From the IMG/VR virus record IMGVR_UViG_3300035562_000069, positions 5,781 through 69,780 of that record: a stretch of 64,000 nt of DNA. One strand, given 5' to 3'. Position 1 is the first letter of the stretch. Each line of letters starts with the position of its first letter. This document shows positions 3,401 through 41,001 of this stretch, in pieces. Made by a program: the position numbers and the translations under genes. Source of the DNA: a virus. Under the pieces are notes generated by a model that was given only the letters and a program-made list of their open reading frames with translations, searched no databases and was not told the origin of the DNA.

Positions 3401-6400
3401 AGATCGCATCACCGCGACCGGATCAGCAATGAGCTCAGGTAACCGCTGCATATCCTCCAATCTAACCTGGTGCGCGCGTACAGTTGGATCGGTCGCCTTG
3501 TGCACGACAGATGCTGGCATAACCATTTCCAGATTGCGGACACCAAGAGCCCGATATACTGCCGGAGTATCACCGAGACGCACCATGCCGCGAGGTGCAT
3601 TCTCCATTCCGGCGATATCCTCAACTTCAGCTGCGAAGTTCTTGGCGTCGTAGCTGTCAGGCTTAAACGGATCCTTCCTTCCAGATGCTGAGTAAAGGGC
3701 ATCGGTGCGGCTGAAAGTATCGTCAAACTCCCTGCTGCCTGGCTGCTCTCCTTCATACATTGCTGTACGTTTAAAGCGACCGGCAATGGAGTGCAGGATA
3801 TTGCGGATTTCCGACGGAGTGATATCCCCCGGGTTGAAGAAACCAGCATTACGCAAGGCATTGGTGATGATGGCAATAAGCCGATCCCATACATGGCCCA
3901 ATCCGGTTAATTCAGAACGCTCTGCCATGTGCGCCAGAAACTCATTCGCCTGGACTTCGGGCGACTCGTTGCCGTAGGCCTTTTGCACCTGACGCCAAAC
4001 AGACTGAATTTCCGGGTTCTTGCTATCACGCGTCTGGTGAAGTACGCGGATAATACGGTCATATTCCACATCCCCGATCACTGAGGCCAGGCCATGGTGT
4101 GCCAAAATCTCATGGCGCAACTTGGCGCGCAGCTGCTTGCCGTCGGCAATATTATCGGCAACCACAATCACGCGGCTGAGCTCGGGCTGGTAAATAGCGT
4201 GCACCGTACCAAATTCTTTCGGGATGCCATTCGGCATCATAGCCGCGGCGTCGGCCTGGGACTGAACAACCTGAACTTTGATTTTTGCCGCGCCATTGAA
4301 GCGGCGAACCCACTGGTCAGCAATGTGCTGAGCCTGTTTGTCCCCCATCCCCTTATCCGGTTTCGCCCCGGACGCATCAAAATTGCCCTCAGAAAGGATA
4401 TTGCCACCGCCAATATCAAGGCCATTTTTGGAATAGAAAGCCACGCCGCGATCTGTAGGCTTGGTTTTCAGCGTCTTGAACAAAGTATCGAAAGCATCGC
4501 GAACGCCATTATTCAGCTCTGCTTCTGTCGGATAAGCGTAGGTGTTCGGGTTGCCATGTTCATCCCCTTTTTTGAGGTTGACCAGGTAATCATTGCGGAT
4601 GCCTTTGGCCTCAGCCCGATCGAGGATATAGCGCTCATACGAACGAGCAGCCATTTCCACGTTGGTTGCCCAATAGGGTTTGCTGCGCAGCTCGTCCAGC
4701 CTCTGCGCGCGGGTAACCATGCCGCTATCGCCAACGGCTTTCATAACTCCCTTCCATGCATTCCAGACCTCTTGGCGCACAGGGAAATCAGCCGGCACCA
4801 TCTTCCCATCCTGGAACTTCATGGTCTGCCGGCGACGAACCGTAGCATAATTGTCGCCACGCCCACCGCCTACGTCAGCCTGACCGAAATAGTTGTCCAA
4901 TGCATGGAACCACTCATGCGCCAGCGAACCGGCACCATTATTTTTCGTCAGGTTAATCACCACCTCACCCGGCTCATAATGCGCCTTAACTGCATTAGAA
5001 CCGCCACGTCCGCGCGCGCCGAACGCAAGGCCGAGCTCGCCATTCAGAGAAATGGCTTTTGCCGGAACGCCGATAATGTCGGCCATGTCATGCAGGCTAT
5101 CAAAGGCATCGTTCAATTCTGCCTGGCGGCGACCCGACTCCACATAGTTTCCGAACTGTACCCCACGGAAACCGAATTCTTTATCGAACTGCGTTGGGGT
5201 AACGTCGGCGGTTCGCCTTTCGGCACCGGCTCGCGGGGCGTTGGTATCACGACGTTGCTCGGTACGTGCCTTATCGCGTTGCTTGGCTATTTGGCTTTCC
5301 AGTTCAGCGCGGTTCTCATTGAGATAATCTCGGGCTGCACGAGGATCCTTGAACCCTTCTTTTATTCTGGCTACCCCGCTAGCCCCTTTGTATCCGATAA
5401 AAATGTCCCGAGTGTATCGATCCGCGTGGATAGTGAAATTGGTTTGTTTGGATACTGGAGCGCCAGCACTTTGTTGATCAATGTACGCTCTCGCTTTATG
5501 CATAAAGTTGGCTTTATCCGTATCAGACACTCCGCCGACCGCTGCCCCTTTGGCTGTCTCCAGCTCATAGACCGATTTCCCCGGAGCCGGATACTCTTTG
5601 CCTTCGTACATAGAGTAATGCGAATGACGTACGCGATACTTTGCGGCCGCCGCCATCTGTTCTGGCGGTATTGAAGAAATCAGATCGTGCGTATCCAACA
5701 TGCCACGCAAATTCTTGCTATTGAAAATCTTTTCACGAACATCAGCGACACTGACCCTTCCATAAAGCAGATCTCCGGAAAGTCCCTTCATCGTCTGAGC
5801 AGATTCGACCCAGCGCTGAAGCAAACGTTTAGGTTTGGTCGGTGGGATCTGGGCTCTTAGCATGGAGAGCAATGCCAACTTGTCGCTGCTTACACCGTCA
5901 TCAGACATTTTTCTGTAATCAGGTTGAGGGAACAGCTTGGATAGGGGGTCAGTTCGATACTGCTCATCCGTAGCATCGCGCTCCATCGCCTCCGAGAACT
6001 TGCCCCACTTGTGCTTCGCTGCGCCTTCCAACTTCTGGCCGAAGTCGTCGATCTGGTCTTCATGACGCGTAGAACCATGGTCACTCCCTGTGTCTTCAAG
6101 TTCAGCGTTACCGCGCCAGTGCGGCCTTTTGGCACGATGTTCGTTGAGAACTGGGCTATATTGTGCACCATACATTCGCCGTTCCTCTGGCGTACCATGG
6201 GCAGCCCTAAAGATGCTCATCACATGCCCACCGGCACTATCATCAGCAAGCATCCGCTGTATCAGCTCAGCAGACTCGTCCTTTGTCAGTCCATTTTCTG
6301 TGGCCACTGTCTGTGGTTCTGCAGTTGGCGTTTTTTCTACCGGCATGCGTATAGCATATCCGCCCTCAACTTCTTCGATCTTGGCGCCGGGTGTTTTTCC

Positions 6401-32543: not shown

Positions 32544-33356
32544 TCAATAATTGACTTCTTCAATTAATCGATTAGATAACAACGTAGTCGCCAAAGACTC
32601 TTCCACATACAGCCAATCCATGCACTGCTTAACCAGGTGTGAATACTGGCTTACCCAGTCACCCGGCTCAACCGCAGCCCCTATGATACGCATCGACTTA
32701 CGCAGATGCTCCATACTGGCTGGGATTTTTCCCTTACCGCCACACTCTTCACACTCCACCGGGTGCGGCCTAACAGTGCGGCCAGTGCCTGAGCAGCGTG
32801 GGCAAATATTGGTTGTGGCTGCGTGGCGTTCAGACCAGGCGCGCAGTGCTGCACGTTCCCGCTCAATCCGCGTATTCAAATCGGTAATTTCTAATCCAGC
32901 CTCAACGTAAACAGTATCGCTGATCTGCGCCTGACATCGGCGCTTGTCTAAACCCTTAATCTCAGACTGCAACGCCTCAATGTTTTTTCGGGCTTGGGCG
33001 GTACGTGGGCCATACCTGCGGAATAATGATGCGAGATGCGCCACTTGTGCCGGCAGGTTACGCTCAAGCACAATACTGAGGGCTAACTGGCATGCTGCTG
33101 CCGCACGATCAGGATGCGGGCGCTGATGTACCCATTCATTGATAGCTGCTCGTAGCCGCTGCTCTGCTTTGAAATCGTTACGGTACTTCGTCATCAGCAG
33201 ATCGAGGCCAACGGAATACTGCTGCTGCGCGGCTGCGAATGCTCCGAGAATTTGCTCCCTGGTCAGGGAAGAGCGGCCACGGCCTACATTCAATGATTCC
33301 GCGCTTACACAGCGCGGATCGTGCATTTTTATGAGTTGTTCTATTGCATTGGTCAT
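32544..33356 (-). CDS. Q-like late antiterminator with CxxC-x-CxxC zinc finger (TIGR02642-like)
   Basis: CPRCSGTG...CEECGGKG; located immediately upstream of late promoter and lysis genes. Confidence 0.75.
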   Translation of the reverse strand: MTNAIEQLIKMHDPRCVSAESLNVGRGRSSLTREQILGAFAAAQQQYSVGLDLLMTKYRNDFKAEQRLRAAINEWVHQRPHPDRAAAACQLALSIVLERNLPAQVAHLASLFRRYGPRTAQARKNIEALQSEIKGLDKRRCQAQISDTVYVEAGLEITDLNTRIERERAALRAWSERHAATTNICPRCSGTGRTVRPHPVECEECGGKGKIPASMEHLRKSMRIIGAAVEPGDWVSQYSHLVKQCMDWLYVEESLATTLLSNRLIEEVNY

Positions 33357-33484: not shown

Positions 33485-35965
33485 TCACATTCCATACTTA
33501 AGAAAAACTCCATTTGTCCGGTTAGACTGATATCCTATCAAGTTCTCATAAGAGTCATAACCTTGACACTCATCCATAACAATAATCTCAACCAAAGGGC
33601 ATCCATGAAATTTGATATTTAGTTCTTTATGAAGAGCTTTCAACGCCTGGGAAAACTTTTCCTTTTGATTAGTATCCTTGCATATACTCTCAAAAATCAA
33701 GTATGCAACATCAGGTTCTATCCTCAAAACTTTTTCTTCAAACTTACTTCGATCGTTTTCGCTTTCTATAAATGCAGCGGCTGTCCCCTTAACTTCAGAA
33801 ATTATTAAATCGCCATCAATAATAGCTACAATGTCAATTTCTTGATAGTCATTCTTGTCAGATGACGAATGGAGATTAACTTCAGGAATGTAAACAGATT
33901 GCTTGCTTTTTGACTTCCTCAATAATAATGATACTGCGGCAATAACTGATAATCCATTATGCTCAGCCAAACATCTTAAAACAAATGGTGTAAATGCATA
34001 ACGCCATATCATATCTATTGGTGTGATATATTCCGCTGCACAAACATCACATTCATTCACTAATTTAAGACCATCTAAAACACGTCTATTTGAATTGCCA
34101 CAGTACTCACACCTTACAATATAAACCTGTTCAATAAAGCCAATTTTCACCATATACTCAATTACATCCAGCAAACTGGCACAGAGTAATTCTTTTGCTT
34201 TTCCAATATTTGTAATGTATTCGTCATCTATTACCCCATCAATATTTTTTCCTGGAATCTGCCTTATTTTTGTCTGAAGAGCTACTAACTCATAACCATT
34301 TACACTTTGTTCTCTTAATAAACCTCTAATGAAAACATTGTTAATGATAGATGATGCTTCATATATATTTGAAAACTTCGATACAACCCCTCTGTGCTGT
34401 TGGCCTTTATCCGAAATATTTATATATTCGTATTTATTTTTATCCTTACAAAATTTCCTATAATCATAATAACCTTTGTCATGACACATTAGTAATTTGA
34501 AAACATCCTCATCAGACGGGGACATCAATTGGAGATACTTGTCTTGTTTATTGTTATTACTTCTATACATACCAACAATATTTTCAGAACTTAGAATTGA
34601 GAGCGAGCGGTGTTTGTTTATTTTTGCCGGTTTTTTTGTAAATAACTCAGTGACAACATGCCTACGACATAGCTCCCAATAGTTATTCGTATTGACATAT
34701 AGACTATCATTTTGATAGCGCTCTATAAAAACATCAATAATCCACTCGCCACTCATTAAAAATTGGTGTTCATAATTTATATATGAGAAGTGCTCCGGCC
34801 CCTGCAGCTTAAATTTAGAATTTTTATTAATAGTATTTTCTTGTTGATCTGGCTTTCCTAAAAAACCGTATGGGTGTCGTCCGTCTAGATTAGGTAATGA
34901 TAGTTCATCAGTTTTTCTTGCTAGCTTTATTTCTACATTAGTAAATTGCTTTATTTTCAATATAAATTGCATGCAGTCATCATGCGTCAATGAAGATGTT
35001 CTTATTTCGACACACCCGCTTTGCGATCCATAGTTATATACATTTTTTTCTAAAAACCCACCAAGACTCTTACAAAAATCCTCATCACATGCAACCAATT
35101 TATCGATAATCATTTCAGATATACGCTCGGAACCCGAATAAAATGCCCCATCTTCAGAAATCATCCTTCTATTCCAGAAGTTTATTTTATCCAATGGAGA
35201 TGAACCAAGGTATAATTGGAATCTTACATTCCCAGCGGAACGTTTTTCTTTCGGATGTGAAATGTTTCCAGCATGGATTTTTGACAACAAAGAGAATGTT
35301 AATACTTCATCATTAGTTATAGCATCAACTATGCCCGCGATAGAATTTACTCTAAAATCACCTACATTCATATTTTCAGGAGTTTTTTCATCACAATAAC
35401 AAACCGTTTTAAACACACCATTTATCTTATATGTAAATGCTTCTACATCATGTCTAAACCCAAAGTTATCAGGTACAAAGTCTTTATGTTTTACATTGCC
35501 CTGTTGTGTGAGTAAAATTTTCTCCCCATCAGCATTTAATTTTCTTGCATATGGACTTTTAATTGTTGACAATGATTTAACTGGCTTATAGCGCACTAGC
35601 CTATTGGGGATGAAGCTACCATTTTCCCTCTCAAAACTATGATACCAAAACTCAATTGGCATTGTTATTTTATGCAGTTCCTCAATATCTTCCTGATTTA
35701 ATTTCACATATGAATAAATAAAATCAACTTCATAGTCATGTAACCAATCTAAGTATTTATCATTTAAAACCTTGCGCTTCTCATAGGGTATCAGTAATGT
35801 ATTTATACCTCCCCAACGGCTATAACACTCTTCAAATACTTTATTTATAATATTGCACGAAACCTCATCTTCATCAATAGGGATTAAATACGCAACTTTA
35901 ATAGGTCGGTTCCACAAGTCAACATCGATGCTCTTAGGAAGTTGCTCTAAATTATTTTCTTTCAT
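33485..35965 (-). CDS. 826-aa AT-rich protein with C-terminal Zn ribbon and PD-(D/E)xK nuclease-like motif
   Basis: CEYC...CDVC; QEIDIVAIIDGDLIISEVKG; N-terminal RPIKVAYLIP...WGG; ATGA-coupled to upstream gene. Confidence 0.7.
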   Translation of the reverse strand: MKENNLEQLPKSIDVDLWNRPIKVAYLIPIDEDEVSCNIINKVFEECYSRWGGINTLLIPYEKRKVLNDKYLDWLHDYEVDFIYSYVKLNQEDIEELHKITMPIEFWYHSFERENGSFIPNRLVRYKPVKSLSTIKSPYARKLNADGEKILLTQQGNVKHKDFVPDNFGFRHDVEAFTYKINGVFKTVCYCDEKTPENMNVGDFRVNSIAGIVDAITNDEVLTFSLLSKIHAGNISHPKEKRSAGNVRFQLYLGSSPLDKINFWNRRMISEDGAFYSGSERISEMIIDKLVACDEDFCKSLGGFLEKNVYNYGSQSGCVEIRTSSLTHDDCMQFILKIKQFTNVEIKLARKTDELSLPNLDGRHPYGFLGKPDQQENTINKNSKFKLQGPEHFSYINYEHQFLMSGEWIIDVFIERYQNDSLYVNTNNYWELCRRHVVTELFTKKPAKINKHRSLSILSSENIVGMYRSNNNKQDKYLQLMSPSDEDVFKLLMCHDKGYYDYRKFCKDKNKYEYINISDKGQQHRGVVSKFSNIYEASSIINNVFIRGLLREQSVNGYELVALQTKIRQIPGKNIDGVIDDEYITNIGKAKELLCASLLDVIEYMVKIGFIEQVYIVRCEYCGNSNRRVLDGLKLVNECDVCAAEYITPIDMIWRYAFTPFVLRCLAEHNGLSVIAAVSLLLRKSKSKQSVYIPEVNLHSSSDKNDYQEIDIVAIIDGDLIISEVKGTAAAFIESENDRSKFEEKVLRIEPDVAYLIFESICKDTNQKEKFSQALKALHKELNIKFHGCPLVEIIVMDECQGYDSYENLIGYQSNRTNGVFLKYGM

Positions 35966-37749
35966 TTCACTACCGCCCTATAGCTTATTGGTCTAAGGTC
36001 GAATAAACTTTCAGCCCCCCCCATTTTAATGTACATGCTGCAGCTATTTTCTATAAAATCAAGGTCATAGACACGATACAAAAAATATCTTGCTGCATTA
36101 TCAGCTGAAACGTTAACTTCATTTGATGATATATAAAACGGCGTGTATAAACTACCACGAGTTGTTTTCACTTCTATCAGTATAGAGTTCCCAGATTCAT
36201 CAAATGATTTAATATCATATCCTGCTGAACAATCCCTAAGAGATACTCTCTCTATTTTTGACGCAAGGTCAGGCCGACCTAAACTCAATAATCTCTCTCG
36301 TTCATAATTCATTACTAATTGCTCGCCTTGATCCCCAAGCGTACGGTTCCTTTCATCTGCAGCGGCCCAATCAGGTTGTTGTAAGATTTTAGTTGATTTA
36401 TTATTTTTTTTAACAACTTTAGATTTATTTTCTTCGTTAGGAAAATCAACCACTCTAATTTTAAATGCATCAACATCAAATTCATCAACAAATCCATCAT
36501 TTTTCAGAGCATTTAAAGCGGGAGCTATCTGTAATGAGTTTTTTAATTTAAAGGCTGATTGGCTACTCAGCAACCTCCACGTAAAACGAACTGGATTTGT
36601 TGAATTTTCAACAACCGAATCGTACGCCAACAACCCCAAATAACTATAATTTGATTTTTCTTCGCACCTTAAAAAAAGATGTATATTGCTTGTATTGTGA
36701 TCATGCGACTTTAACCTTTGAACAAAATCACTCTCCGCACTCATTTGTTTCTGTGTTTCCCAATGCAACTGACCTTCGTCGGTAAGTGCATCTTTATATG
36801 GATTGCCAGCATGCGGTTTTTCAATAGTAACAATGAATACTAGATCGTTCGTTTTATTTTTAAGTCTGATTATACCAGAGATACCCCAGCGCCCAGCCCC
36901 TACGGTAAATTTAGAACCAGGCTCAAATAACTGACAAATCCCCTCACGATCATATTTATTTAGTAAAATTGGCTTTAAGTTACCTTTCGACTTAGGTTCA
37001 ATATAAAATCCGTTTGACTTTAAAATTTCAAAACACTCACTATCTTCGCCGCCAGAAAACTCATCTGAAATTAGAAGTCTATTAATTATAGTTTTCGCAG
37101 CGATACCAAATATAAATTTTGGAGGGTAACGGTTTCCTTCATAAACTAAATCGTAAGTTGTCGAGTGCCGATAGCAGTAGCGCCATGGTTCGTATTGGCT
37201 ATAGTCCCTAATGGCTTCTCTAATATCCCTTGAGCTAAGCTCACGCATTAGTTCCTTTACATCATGGACCCTACCACTGGGGCCTTTATTAATGTCTACA
37301 AAACCATTACCGTCAAAGTATATACTAGCTTTTGACATTAAAAATGATGCCATATCAAAATCAATTTTCGATATGTATGCTCCTTGCTGAGGTACACCAT
37401 TTTTGTTTATAGGTGATAAATAATCACGTTTTATTGCAACCAGATGCTTTATATGTTCTTTAACATCAACCACTTTATTTAGCGGTTCAAACTTCACCTT
37501 TACTTCAAAATGTTCACTACCTTTCCAGTCAATAACTCTTGCTTCTTTTGACTTTACCACCCCAACGTTGGTTATTTTTTGGTCAAAGCATGCAAAAACT
37601 ATATCACCTTTTCTAGCTTGGCCTAGCATCTCGCGATAACCAAGCTTTGAATCACCGCCAATACCCGCAATAAGGATACCGTCACGAATTTCTATAACAT
37701 GACGTTCTTTATTATGATTAACCCAGAAAAACTGCTGTTCATTATCCAT
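35962..37749 (-). CDS. 595-aa multidomain nuclease: EVE/PUA-like, ScoMcrA-N-like, DUF3427-like and C-terminal DUF3883 (PD-(D/E)xK)
   Basis: FFWVNH...KGDIVF; STTYDLVYEGNRYPPK...FSGG; LHWETQ...IHLFLR...YSYLG; LGDQGEQLV...AGYDIKSF...IEVKTT...FYISSNE. Confidence 0.8.
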   Translation of the reverse strand: MDNEQQFFWVNHNKERHVIEIRDGILIAGIGGDSKLGYREMLGQARKGDIVFACFDQKITNVGVVKSKEARVIDWKGSEHFEVKVKFEPLNKVVDVKEHIKHLVAIKRDYLSPINKNGVPQQGAYISKIDFDMASFLMSKASIYFDGNGFVDINKGPSGRVHDVKELMRELSSRDIREAIRDYSQYEPWRYCYRHSTTYDLVYEGNRYPPKFIFGIAAKTIINRLLISDEFSGGEDSECFEILKSNGFYIEPKSKGNLKPILLNKYDREGICQLFEPGSKFTVGAGRWGISGIIRLKNKTNDLVFIVTIEKPHAGNPYKDALTDEGQLHWETQKQMSAESDFVQRLKSHDHNTSNIHLFLRCEEKSNYSYLGLLAYDSVVENSTNPVRFTWRLLSSQSAFKLKNSLQIAPALNALKNDGFVDEFDVDAFKIRVVDFPNEENKSKVVKKNNKSTKILQQPDWAAADERNRTLGDQGEQLVMNYERERLLSLGRPDLASKIERVSLRDCSAGYDIKSFDESGNSILIEVKTTRGSLYTPFYISSNEVNVSADNAARYFLYRVYDLDFIENSCSMYIKMGGAESLFDLRPISYRAVVK

Positions 37750-37890: not shown

Positions 37891-38208
37891 TTATTCCATT
37901 ATCAATAAATCATGTCCTATCCATATACCTATTGTCCTATGCAACGCATAGAATAAAACCTCATTAAGCTCACCTTGCCGCCAGTCGTATGGTATACGTC
38001 CATCGATTACATCGTGACAACTGGAGCATCCGAAAACAGCCCAGTAATCATCGCTTTTATACCCCATGCCATGGGTGCTACTGGGGAGATGACATAAAAC
38101 CGTTGTTTCCGGGTTCCCGTTGCAAATTCCAGGAATCTGCAGCGTACAGCACTGACCACGCGCCGAATCACGCAAGGCCTTACTCCTAAATGCTGGTGAC
38201 TTTCGCAC
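37891..38208 (-). CDS. DUF1364/YbcO-family nuclease-like nin protein
   Basis: SARGQCCTLQIPGICNGNPETTVLCHL...GCSSCHDVID. Confidence 0.85.
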   Translation of the reverse strand: MRKSPAFRSKALRDSARGQCCTLQIPGICNGNPETTVLCHLPSSTHGMGYKSDDYWAVFGCSSCHDVIDGRIPYDWRQGELNEVLFYALHRTIGIWIGHDLLIME

Positions 38209-38856
38209 TCAATACTCCAAGAGCCGATTAACGGCCTGTTCCATCTCATGCTCATCGGCGAAATGCTGTTGCAGCGTCTCGTTCCAGATGATGCCTGCGA
38301 CACCGCTATAAACCTTGTCGAACTTCTCCTGACTCATATTGACGAAAGCAATGCTCCAGCGCTGCTTCAGCGTTCCACCATCCGGGTTCGCGGCCAGGTC
38401 ATAGAAACCGGCCTTTACCATGACGTGATTGAGGTAAGCTTCCGTCGTTTTCACAGCTTCGGCGTCAAAACGCCGCTGACGTTGCGCAGCAACGCGCTGC
38501 AGCACACTGTCGGCGATCAGCTTTGTGATGTTGTCATACAGCAGCGGATCGCCAGCCTGCGCCGCCAGCGTCTTCGCTACCTCATGCGCAATCCACTTTT
38601 CTGGATCGCTAACGAACGTCCAATCTGGCTCCCAATACGAAAAGCCCAACTCCAGCAGCTTCCAGAATTTGCGGTGGTGCTTCAGGTTCCGGCGGTCGCC
38701 GATCGGTCGCATGGCGATAGGAGTGCCCGTAGGCACCCCTTTCATCGTGTCCCTGTCGTGGTCGGTCGCGTATTTGATACCGCCACCTGGTAGCAGCACC
38801 CCCAACGCTTCCGTCTTATGCTTTCTCGAGGACTTAGTTCGCGGCGCGGCTGTCAT
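38209..38856 (-). CDS. DUF1367-family (NinB-like) protein
   Basis: RNLKHHRKFWKLL...SIAFVNMSQEKFDKVY. Confidence 0.8.
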   Translation of the reverse strand: MTAAPRTKSSRKHKTEALGVLLPGGGIKYATDHDRDTMKGVPTGTPIAMRPIGDRRNLKHHRKFWKLLELGFSYWEPDWTFVSDPEKWIAHEVAKTLAAQAGDPLLYDNITKLIADSVLQRVAAQRQRRFDAEAVKTTEAYLNHVMVKAGFYDLAANPDGGTLKQRWSIAFVNMSQEKFDKVYSGVAGIIWNETLQQHFADEHEMEQAVNRLLEY

Positions 38857-39518
38857 GCGACACTCCTATCAGCCAGGCGCTCAGCTTCACTGCGGATCTG
38901 CGCCAAGAATGATTCGCCATGAGCCATCAACTGATCACGACTGACATAACTCTGAGCTGGACCGCGCCAAGTTTTATCAAACACCGCGATAGCTGCGCCA
39001 AAGCCGGCACTGCTGGCCTCTTGTTTTGCATCTGCCGGCCGATACCACAACGGCACATCAAAACCGATACGGCCACGAATGAACGCGACATGATCTGCAT
39101 CCTCTGGCCACCAGACTTCCGCTGTCGCTGATTTGATGAGAAACACATAACGCCCACCGAGATCCCGCATCGTCATGGTTTGGCGCATGATGTGCCGCAT
39201 GCCGGTGATATATTCACCTTCATACTGCTTCGCCGTGCTGTACGGCGGGTTACCAAAAGCCGCGCCATTCAGCTCTTTGACTCGGACAGACCAGTCCTGA
39301 ATCAGTGCATTATCTTCGGCTGTATAGAACGCCGCGCACTTGCTGTTTTCGCCGTCGCTGAACAGATCGAGAACAAAGGGACCAAACATCGCATTTATGC
39401 CCCAAAATAGCTTATCCGGCGTACGCCATTGGTCACCGATTTCTTTCAGCTCGTGAGCTGGAGCCTGTCTCAGCGCGGTTAGGGACCGAACGTAAGAGGA
39501 ATTTGAGAAGTCGATCAT
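38853..39518 (-). CDS. Phage N6-adenine DNA methyltransferase (phage Dam family)
   Basis: DQWRTP...FVLDLF...NPPYS catalytic motif. Confidence 0.9.
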   Translation of the reverse strand: MIDFSNSSYVRSLTALRQAPAHELKEIGDQWRTPDKLFWGINAMFGPFVLDLFSDGENSKCAAFYTAEDNALIQDWSVRVKELNGAAFGNPPYSTAKQYEGEYITGMRHIMRQTMTMRDLGGRYVFLIKSATAEVWWPEDADHVAFIRGRIGFDVPLWYRPADAKQEASSAGFGAAIAVFDKTWRGPAQSYVSRDQLMAHGESFLAQIRSEAERLADRSVA

Positions 39519-39862
39519 AGCTGGACCACCTTGTGCGAAGGTACCAGTCGATAGAACCAGGTAGTTTTTCCCGATTCGTCGTTGCGGACTTTGCTTACCT
39601 GCTTCACCAGGCCATGCAAGATCGGAGAGATTTCACGTAGACGCGCGCTAATCGCCGTCTGAGTATCCCCCTCATCGGGGAACATCTGCGCCAGCAGGTT
39701 TTCCAGATCGCGCAGTGAATGCCAATCAGCACCGCTGGCTGCCGTGATAACCCGGTTCATTTGAGTATTTGCTTCATCGAATCGGCCCGCCTTACGCAAC
39801 TTGCGGATCCCCTCGTTGATGCAGCTACGCTCTTTTTCGGAGGCTTGAGGTTTCTGCATCAT
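39515..39862 (-). CDS. Hypothetical winged-helix-like protein (115 aa)
   Basis: WHSLRDLE...TAISARLRE; ATGA-coupled. Confidence 0.6.
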
Positions 39863-41001
39863 TGCTCGGCCCCTGTACTCAGCACTGTCCGCGTGCCATC
39901 GACACCGGGCGCAGACAGCACACCACCGGCCTCCATCTGCTCTATCAGCCGCGCAGCGCGGTTATAGCCGATTCGGAATTGACGCTGCAGGCCTGAAATC
40001 GAAGCGTGGCCTTTAGCCTGCACAAACTGCACAGCTTCGGGATAACGCTCGTCATTCAGCGACTCATCATCCTCATCAGCCGTTGAGCCACTGCTATTGG
40101 CCGAATGGCTCGCTTCCCCGCCGAGAGCTGCAACCAGGTTGGCAATCAATGCCGACAGCTCGCCGGTCAGCAGAATAAAGTCCGCGTCAAAACGTTGGGC
40201 GTAATCTTCCCGATCGATATCGTCGTTCTGCTCCAGCAGCACATCGCTAAATTTCAGTTTCTTCAGCGTGCCGTCATCGCTCAAGACGAAATCGATCCGA
40301 TCCTGCCAGCTCAGCGCCAACTTAGTGACCAACTTACCCGCCTGCAGGTTTGACGCGATTTCATCTCCGACCAGATCCTGCTTCTTGCAACGGATAATCC
40401 CGCCCTCTTCCAGCACGGCTTTCAGCTCGGCCTCATCCTGCAGTGTGAAGCCCGCCGGCGGCTGGCCGGAGCGCACCCACTCGGTCACTGTTAGCTCGAT
40501 CGGGTTTGCCATGGTCAGCGGCACTACCGGCAAAGAACCCAGGCTCTTGCGCAACAGCGCCAGCGCATCTTCGGCCCGTTTAGCACTGGCAGCGTCAACG
40601 ACGATTAACCCAGCCCCTTCGTTAATCCAGATCTGTGTTTTATGGTGTTTGCTGAAAGCGCGCGGCAACAGGCTATGCAGCACTTCGTCTTTGAGCGCGT
40701 CATTCTCTGATTTCTTCAGTTTCCGATGCTGTTCGGCTTCAAGTTTGGCGACTTTCTCGTTCAGCTCGGTTTGTATAACTTCACGCGGGAGCAGTTTCTC
40801 TTCGCGCTGTACCACCAGCAGATGCTGGCCGTTGGCGGTGTGCACGAGTGCATCGCCAATCGGTGCCACCCATCCGGTTTTTGCCATGTCCTGGCTACCG
40901 CATGGCGTGAACGCAAATGCAGCCAGTTGCTCTTCCATCCCGCTCAGATCCACACCTCGGGACAAGCGGTAAATCATTGCGTTTTTGATGCTAATGGTCA
41001 T
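39859..41001 (-). CDS. rdgC: RdgC fused to a C-terminal FtsK gamma domain
   Basis: RdgC motifs [27 protein letters not shown]; C-terminal [25 protein letters not shown]. Confidence 0.9.

Follow-up and report, generated by a model that had tools for sequence, protein, structure and literature searches.

A YenY4I-group nuclease gene in the variable slot upstream of Q in a lambdoid Serratia-type prophage

What does a gene that joins several apparent modified-DNA readers to a nuclease do in a prophage that also carries a DNA adenine methyltransferase? The question is raised by IMG/VR virus record IMGVR_UViG_3300035562_000069 (72.8 kb, rated complete by CheckV), of which we analysed positions 5,781 to 69,780, a stretch of 64,000 nucleotides that is called the window here and that supplies all coordinates except those given with the name of another locus. 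Reading the open reading frames (ORFs) of the window revealed a 595-codon ORF (P0001) on the minus strand at 35962-37749. An initial annotation, made from the letters alone, had described its product as a nuclease with three candidate reader domains and proposed a multi-specific type IV restriction enzyme, potentially at odds with the prophage's own methyltransferase. Our analysis places the protein in the YenY4I group, a known type of anti-phage gene and not a new one, and recognizes reader folds in two of its four domains.

Identity and domain anatomy

The 595-amino-acid protein aligned with YenY4I end to end and collinearly, with 52% identity between residues 5-595 and residues 8-601 of the 601-amino-acid enzyme (P0074 = WP_077293998.1; given as WP_077293998 in PMC6765204). 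As described by Lutz et al. (2019, NAR; PMC6765204), YenY4I forms a group with six close homologues, with lengths of 595-601 amino acids, in which an N-terminal domain that clusters with those of TspA15I, VcaM4I and CmeDI is followed by a DUF3427 middle and a DUF3883 PD-(D/E)XK end. We found the same combination here, namely full-length collinear homology, a VcaM4I-like N terminus, and DUF3427 and DUF3883 regions with an intact catalytic motif. The same study found very low YenY4I activity in Mg2+; in Mn2+, with no ATP added and the enzyme at high concentration, there was weak cleavage dependent on 5-methylcytosine (5mC) and 5-hydroxymethylcytosine (5hmC). In cells, T4gt was weakly and lambda-vir somewhat restricted, wild-type T4 was not, and a Dcm+ host showed mild toxicity; the gene is probably prophage-borne and has a phage adenine methylase alongside (PMC6765204). 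With full-length similarity to an enzyme shown to act in this way, the assignment to type IV, modification-dependent nucleases with PUA-superfamily readers holds, and we infer that this 52%-identical protein behaves like YenY4I.

We next considered the domains individually, using an AlphaFold2 model (31 homologues in the alignment; mean predicted local distance difference test score (pLDDT) of 79), a separately folded segment covering residues 150-260 (pLDDT 89), and fold comparison with VIA-align (48,161 representative chains for residues 150-260) and Foldseek. Residues 5-150 matched the EVE domain of VcaM4I (6yex_A 1-159) with Z 19.7 and a root-mean-square deviation (rmsd) of 2.2 Å over 141 residues (Foldseek E 1.3e-10); other EVE proteins came next (Z 11-14), and YTH domains reached Z 10-11. 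Among 17 relatives of this domain found with phmmer, 11 were fused to HNH_2 and a single one matched Pfam EVE. At the other end, Pfam NOV_C/DUF3883 (PF13020) matched residues 475-563 (6e-17), and the PADLOC profiles PDC-S36 (5e-44) and PD-T4-1 (6e-19) covered only this nuclease region (residues 424-593). The segment before the nuclease is a poorly conserved linker with pLDDT below 50 at residues 407-422 and 440-463.

The middle of the protein is less uniform than its family name suggests. Pfam DUF3427 (PF11907) matched residues 261-393 (8e-14) over profile positions 128-267 of 280 only, which is explained by the layout of SauUSI, where an SRA-fold recognition domain (806-953) follows a helical coupler (PMC7913695). 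Residues 260-408 superposed on that recognition domain (7clg_A 803-953) with Z 13.7, and the same segment matched AbaSI (Z 10.0) and the SRA domain of SUVH5 (Z 9.8). For residues 150-260, the sole clear match in the Protein Data Bank (PDB) was ScoMcrA (5zmm 5-102; Z 7.7, 28% identity; Foldseek probability 1.00, rmsd 2.5 Å over 87 columns); no other chain scored above Z 3.0. A family profile searched against PDB sequences recovered the same two proteins, SauUSI at 765-918 (E 5e-9) and ScoMcrA (5zmm_A) at 6-97 (E 0.0017); a phmmer search with the 595-residue protein found no PDB sequence at E up to 10, and NCBIfam gave no match. All homologues also carry a precomputed PF26345 match, although we drew the assignment to the ScoMcrA 'head' from structure and the PDB profile search, not from PF26345. 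In these models, the 'DUF3427 middle domain' of the family is two domains, a ScoMcrA-type head and an SRA fold, which the YenY4I paper did not separate.

All four segments named by the initial annotation are therefore present, and in the models the EVE and SRA-like segments adopt PUA/SRA-like folds. Its quoted motifs were likewise all found, at residues 7-12 (FFWVNH), 47-52 (KGDIVF), 197-211 (TTYDLVYEGNRYPPK), 231-234 (FSGG), 328-333 (LHWETQ), 357-361 (HLFLR) and 368-372 (YSYLG). The count of three readers fared less well: the EVE and SRA-like domains have reader folds, but the third segment corresponds to the ScoMcrA head and not to the sulfur-binding domain (SBD) of that enzyme.

Residues expected to matter for function are largely retained in the nuclease and SRA-fold domains. 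E476, D512, E526 and K528 follow the PD-(D/E)xK pattern and were invariant across the 31 homologues, and SauUSI D858 and W868, which contact the flipped cytosine in a model, have D320 and W330, both invariant in the family, as their aligned counterparts, so that the SRA pocket looks intact. In VcaM4I, the base pocket is formed by P24, W82 and Y130, with Q10, T11 and E15 hydrogen bonding and Q128 acting as a wedge (PMC7897488). Of these, the stacking pair W82/Y130 has counterparts in W75 and Y125 of the 595-residue protein, and E15 and the wedge Q128 have theirs in E20 and Q122.

Comparison with other characterized systems sets the architecture apart from each of its nearest structural relatives. 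VcaM4I and TspA15I (PDB 6yex; PMC7897488) share the N-terminal EVE fold and the four residues just listed but end in HNH rather than a DUF3883 PD-(D/E)xK domain, and lack the two additional domains found here. SauUSI (PDB 7clg; PMC7913695) shares the SRA fold and DUF3427 sequence family at residues 260-395, including the cytosine-contacting Asp and Trp, but contains a PLD nuclease, an SF2 ATPase and the helical coupler; a Pfam search at E up to 1 found no PLD nuclease or SF2 helicase-like ATPase in the 595-residue protein, to which only SauUSI 765-953 aligns. ScoMcrA (PDB 5zmm; PMC6224610) likewise fuses a head domain and an SRA-type reader to a nuclease, but its sulfur-binding and HNH domains are absent here, which removes any ground for expecting the enzyme to depend on phosphorothioate. 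McaZI-type DUF3427-DUF3883 fusions and the proteins behind PDC-S36 and PD-T4-1 share the C-terminal nuclease and have no EVE domain. YenY4I has the same order of EVE, head-like, DUF3427/SRA and DUF3883 domains together with a prophage location upstream of Q and a phage adenine methylase nearby, although it differs in host genus, by 48% of its sequence and in a Yersinia locus without the coupled gene described below.

Prophage setting and the slot upstream of Q

The gene is carried by a lambdoid Serratia-type prophage; the gene neighbours identify it as lambdoid, and the closest protein matches of the record come from Serratia. It lies on the same strand as, and between, the nin-type genes (NinB-like, Dam and YbcO) and the Q-like antiterminator (Table 1), with genes for a holin, a lysozyme, an Rz-like spanin and a small terminase also downstream. 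Together with the next gene it forms a 4.3-kb block of 33-36% GC within surroundings of about 54% GC, as expected for imported cargo, and a megablast search with the 4.4-kb two-gene stretch found no match in phage or E. coli collections. As a side observation, the Q-like protein weakly matches a DnaJ-type CXXCXGXG zinc finger (window 32544-33356 (-), L046:14287-15105 and L050:11964-12773), and the match is kept across Serratia- and Yersinia-type prophages.

Table 1 Coordinates of the domains of the 595-residue protein, of neighbouring genes and of the corresponding slot in related prophages
Feature	Location	Strand	Remarks
RdgC protein fused to C-terminal FtsK gamma domain	39859-41001	-	Upstream of the 595-residue gene; RdgC 1.5e-115, FtsK gamma 7e-23
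NinB-like DUF1367 protein		-	Upstream of the 595-residue gene, same strand
Dam-type N6-adenine methyltransferase	38853-39518	-	Pfam PF05869 1e-43; PHROG 111 DNA methyltransferase
YbcO nuclease	37891-38208	-	Upstream of the 595-residue gene
EVE (PUA-superfamily) domain, residues 5-150	37300..37737	-	Fold match to VcaM4I; candidate base-flipping 5mC/5hmC reader
ScoMcrA 'head'-like domain, residues ~170-258	36976..37242	-	Fold and profile match to ScoMcrA
SRA-fold domain, residues 260-395	36565..36972	-	C-terminal half of DUF3427; candidate second 5mC/5hmC reader
Lysine-rich low-confidence linker, residues 396-455	36385..36564	-	Low pLDDT, weak conservation
DUF3883/NOV_C PD-(D/E)xK nuclease domain, residues 456-595 and stop codon	35962..36384	-	Pfam NOV_C
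826-residue ORF (P0002)	33485-35965	-	Directly downstream of the 595-residue gene
Q-like antiterminator	32544-33356	-	PHROG 127, 2e-12; downstream
L050 (Yersinia-type)	L050:10001-11806		96% YenY4I match alone, between VRR-NUC nuclease and Q
L046	L046:11798-14223		83% homologue, then 282-residue gene and KAP NTPase
L047	L047:10001-11582		EVE-HNH gene and nucleotidyltransferase
L048	L048:7790-10970		EVE-HNH gene and SIR2-like gene

The gene is conserved over its full length in Serratia and Yersinia (52-93% identity), which shows that it is not a chance ORF. Full-length forms were found only in these two genera and a few further assemblies. Forms of about 455 amino acids without the EVE domain keep the head-like, SRA-fold and nuclease domains (residues 147-595) and occur in Polaromonas, Comamonas, Cupriavidus, Pseudomonas, Enterovibrio and others (Burkholderiales, Pseudomonas, Vibrionaceae). 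Only such short forms were returned by a related-locus search with a 22-sequence subset of the alignment, and a scan of viral contigs with P0012 gave no match. The EVE module is mobile: 11 of its 17 sequence relatives are EVE-HNH proteins. P0052 (404 amino acids), a relative with an HNH match, has the order EVE-head-HNH, and P0054 (258 amino acids) has the EVE-head pair, so that the pair travels as a unit and can be combined with nucleases of both types.

The slot itself is also variable. Across these Serratia and Yersinia prophages, the position just upstream of Q is a cargo site at which modification-dependent nucleases are swapped: L047 and L048 carry EVE-HNH genes there, and the remaining related loci carry relatives of the gene studied here with differing companions (Table 1). 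It looks like a defence hotspot.

Proposed role and the self/non-self question

The 595-residue protein is very probably a type IV, modification-dependent endonuclease of the YenY4I group, carried as accessory prophage cargo just upstream of Q. By analogy with characterized relatives, its EVE and SRA-fold domains would both contact DNA, each flipping out a 5-methyl- or 5-hydroxymethyl-cytosine to lodge it in a pocket, and reader binding would position or license the C-terminal DUF3883 PD-(D/E)xK domain to cut nearby, with the head-like domain forming a conserved module between the two readers. The enzyme should work without ATP, since it has no NTPase domain. It probably shields the lysogen from phages, or from other DNA entering the cell, whose cytosines are modified. 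Because the solved relatives of both readers (VcaM4I's EVE domain and SauUSI's SRA domain) read 5mC or 5hmC, a dual reader of one modification class would be a simpler reading than the multi-specific enzyme proposed initially.

Several observations weigh against this assignment. YenY4I itself is only weakly active. The EVE pocket is, by alignment, only partly conserved: VcaM4I T11, W22 and P24 are replaced by R16, I27 and G29, and W75 is an arginine in two group members (P0010 and P0011), so this pocket may recognize a different target or be of minor importance. In the SRA-fold domain, SauUSI Y831, a modelled contact to the methyl group, aligns with L296. Finally, the gene sits in the early-right operon, from the nin-type genes to Q, and a consensus scan revealed no convincing promoter of its own (18 promoter-like sites versus 22 expected), so that expression in the lysogen is putative.

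The Dam-type methyltransferase gene does lie about 1.1 kb upstream, as first described, and ends 1104 bp before the start codon of the nuclease gene. The self/non-self question drawn from this proximity largely dissolves, as the product of Dam is N6-methyladenine (6mA) and both readers belong to the cytosine type. GATC methylation is also a property of enterobacterial hosts, in which a nuclease responding to that mark would kill its own cell. Recognition of 6mA has not been reported for VcaM4I, SauUSI or YenY4I, and we detected no C5 cytosine methylase (PF00145) in the virus record with a search that gave matches in control genomes. Self-restriction arising from the prophage Dam is thus unlikely given the cytosine-type readers, the lack of a C5 methylase in the record and the published pairing of YenY4I with an adenine methylase, and 6mA from this source is not expected to be a substrate of the 595-residue enzyme.

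The coupled downstream gene and the head domain

The start codon of the downstream 826-codon ORF overlaps the stop codon of the nuclease gene (ATGA, read directly from the sequence), and the two genes are translationally coupled. The 826-residue protein has a weak Pfam match to NERD at residues 680-775 and a large conserved N-terminal region without a family match. Four cysteines (C619, C622, C639 and C642) and a D711/E724/K726 triad were invariant in nine homologues, which together predict a four-Cys zinc ribbon and a NERD-like PD-(D/E)xK nuclease domain. The family is small, with ten sequence matches. Look-alikes listed in the ESM Atlas, in which the protein itself has no model, are clusters of hypothetical proteins, mostly from Actinomycetota.

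These features could be explained by a Serratia two-gene system, in which one protein senses modified DNA and its partner supplies or boosts cleavage. Both genes lie in the same low-GC block, the Cys4 and D711/E724/K726 residues of the partner are kept invariant, and the pair is adjacent in several Serratia genomes and in L045 and L049. Such a system could also account for the weakness of YenY4I alone, in line with the proposal of Lutz et al. that DUF3427-DUF3883 enzymes may need partners (PMC6765204). The pairing is, however, confined to the Serratia versions and is not conserved: the 83%-identical homologue in L046 is followed by the 282-residue gene and the KAP NTPase, and Q comes directly next to the YenY4I-like gene in Yersinia (L050). 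Overall, no homologue of the 826-residue protein turned up close to the relatives of the nuclease at L046, L050 or L001-L012, the latter comprising 11 full-length short-form relatives (L001-L011) and one partial (L012), each searched to within 8 kb. We regard a two-gene system of this kind as fairly unlikely. The 826-residue gene falls outside the YenY4I family and is either an accessory or partner gained in Serratia or a defence gene in its own right that occupies the same cargo slot.

A second alternative gives the head-like domain a specificity of its own, making it a third independent reader (for example, of phosphorothioate, 6mA or a glucosylated base) in a multi-specific enzyme. The domain is well conserved, with nine residues (S196, T197, D200, L201, P210, K211, F231, G233 and G234) invariant in 22 homologues. 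It recurs at the N termini of McrB-like proteins (P0036-P0038), in ScoMcrA and in EVE-head-HNH proteins such as P0052, that is, at sites where type IV enzymes usually keep their DNA-recognition modules. On the other hand, the only solved head domain, that of ScoMcrA, is described as a small domain with a flexible attachment and no known function, phosphorothioate binding being mapped to the SBD, a distinct domain located after it (PMC6224610), and the best fold matches outside ScoMcrA reach only Z 2-3. A third reader is accordingly improbable. We separately rejected the idea that an SBD like that of ScoMcrA lets the enzyme read phosphorothioate: matches to ScoMcrA are confined to chain residues 5-102, and the SBD (helical, ~170 residues, with a Y164/P165 cavity) is not present in a protein that is filled by four domains and the linker at 396-455, this 60-residue disordered stretch being the only unassigned one and too short to hold it. 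Taken as one proposition, a new two-component modified-DNA defence with the 826-residue partner in Serratia prophages or, alternatively, a head domain acting as a third reader with its own specificity appears distinctly unlikely.

It is least probable, and to a degree that makes it remote, that the gene serves the lytic programme from the early-right transcript only, for instance through breakdown of modified DNA of the host or of a competitor once the prophage is induced. Such a role would fit the same-strand position from the nin-type genes to Q and the lack of a clear promoter or terminator belonging to the gene, but related prophages carry different defence-like genes in this variable slot, YenY4I expressed alone restricted incoming phage, and a consensus scan is not refined enough to rule a promoter out.

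With the YenY4I-group assignment preferred, most of what the locus reveals is established biology. The 2019 description already covered this family of enzymes, including the domain architecture, the prophage setting and the dependence on modified cytosine, and the SRA fold had already been shown for SauUSI (PMC7913695). What is new here, from models and profile searches, is the division of the DUF3427 middle into two domains and the assignment of the first to the ScoMcrA head. A further modest addition is the recognition that different modification-dependent nucleases replace one another at the slot before Q. The coupling to an 826-residue, nuclease-like gene is likewise unpublished and is the sole open lead, as this neighbour may be a cofactor for an enzyme that is barely active alone.

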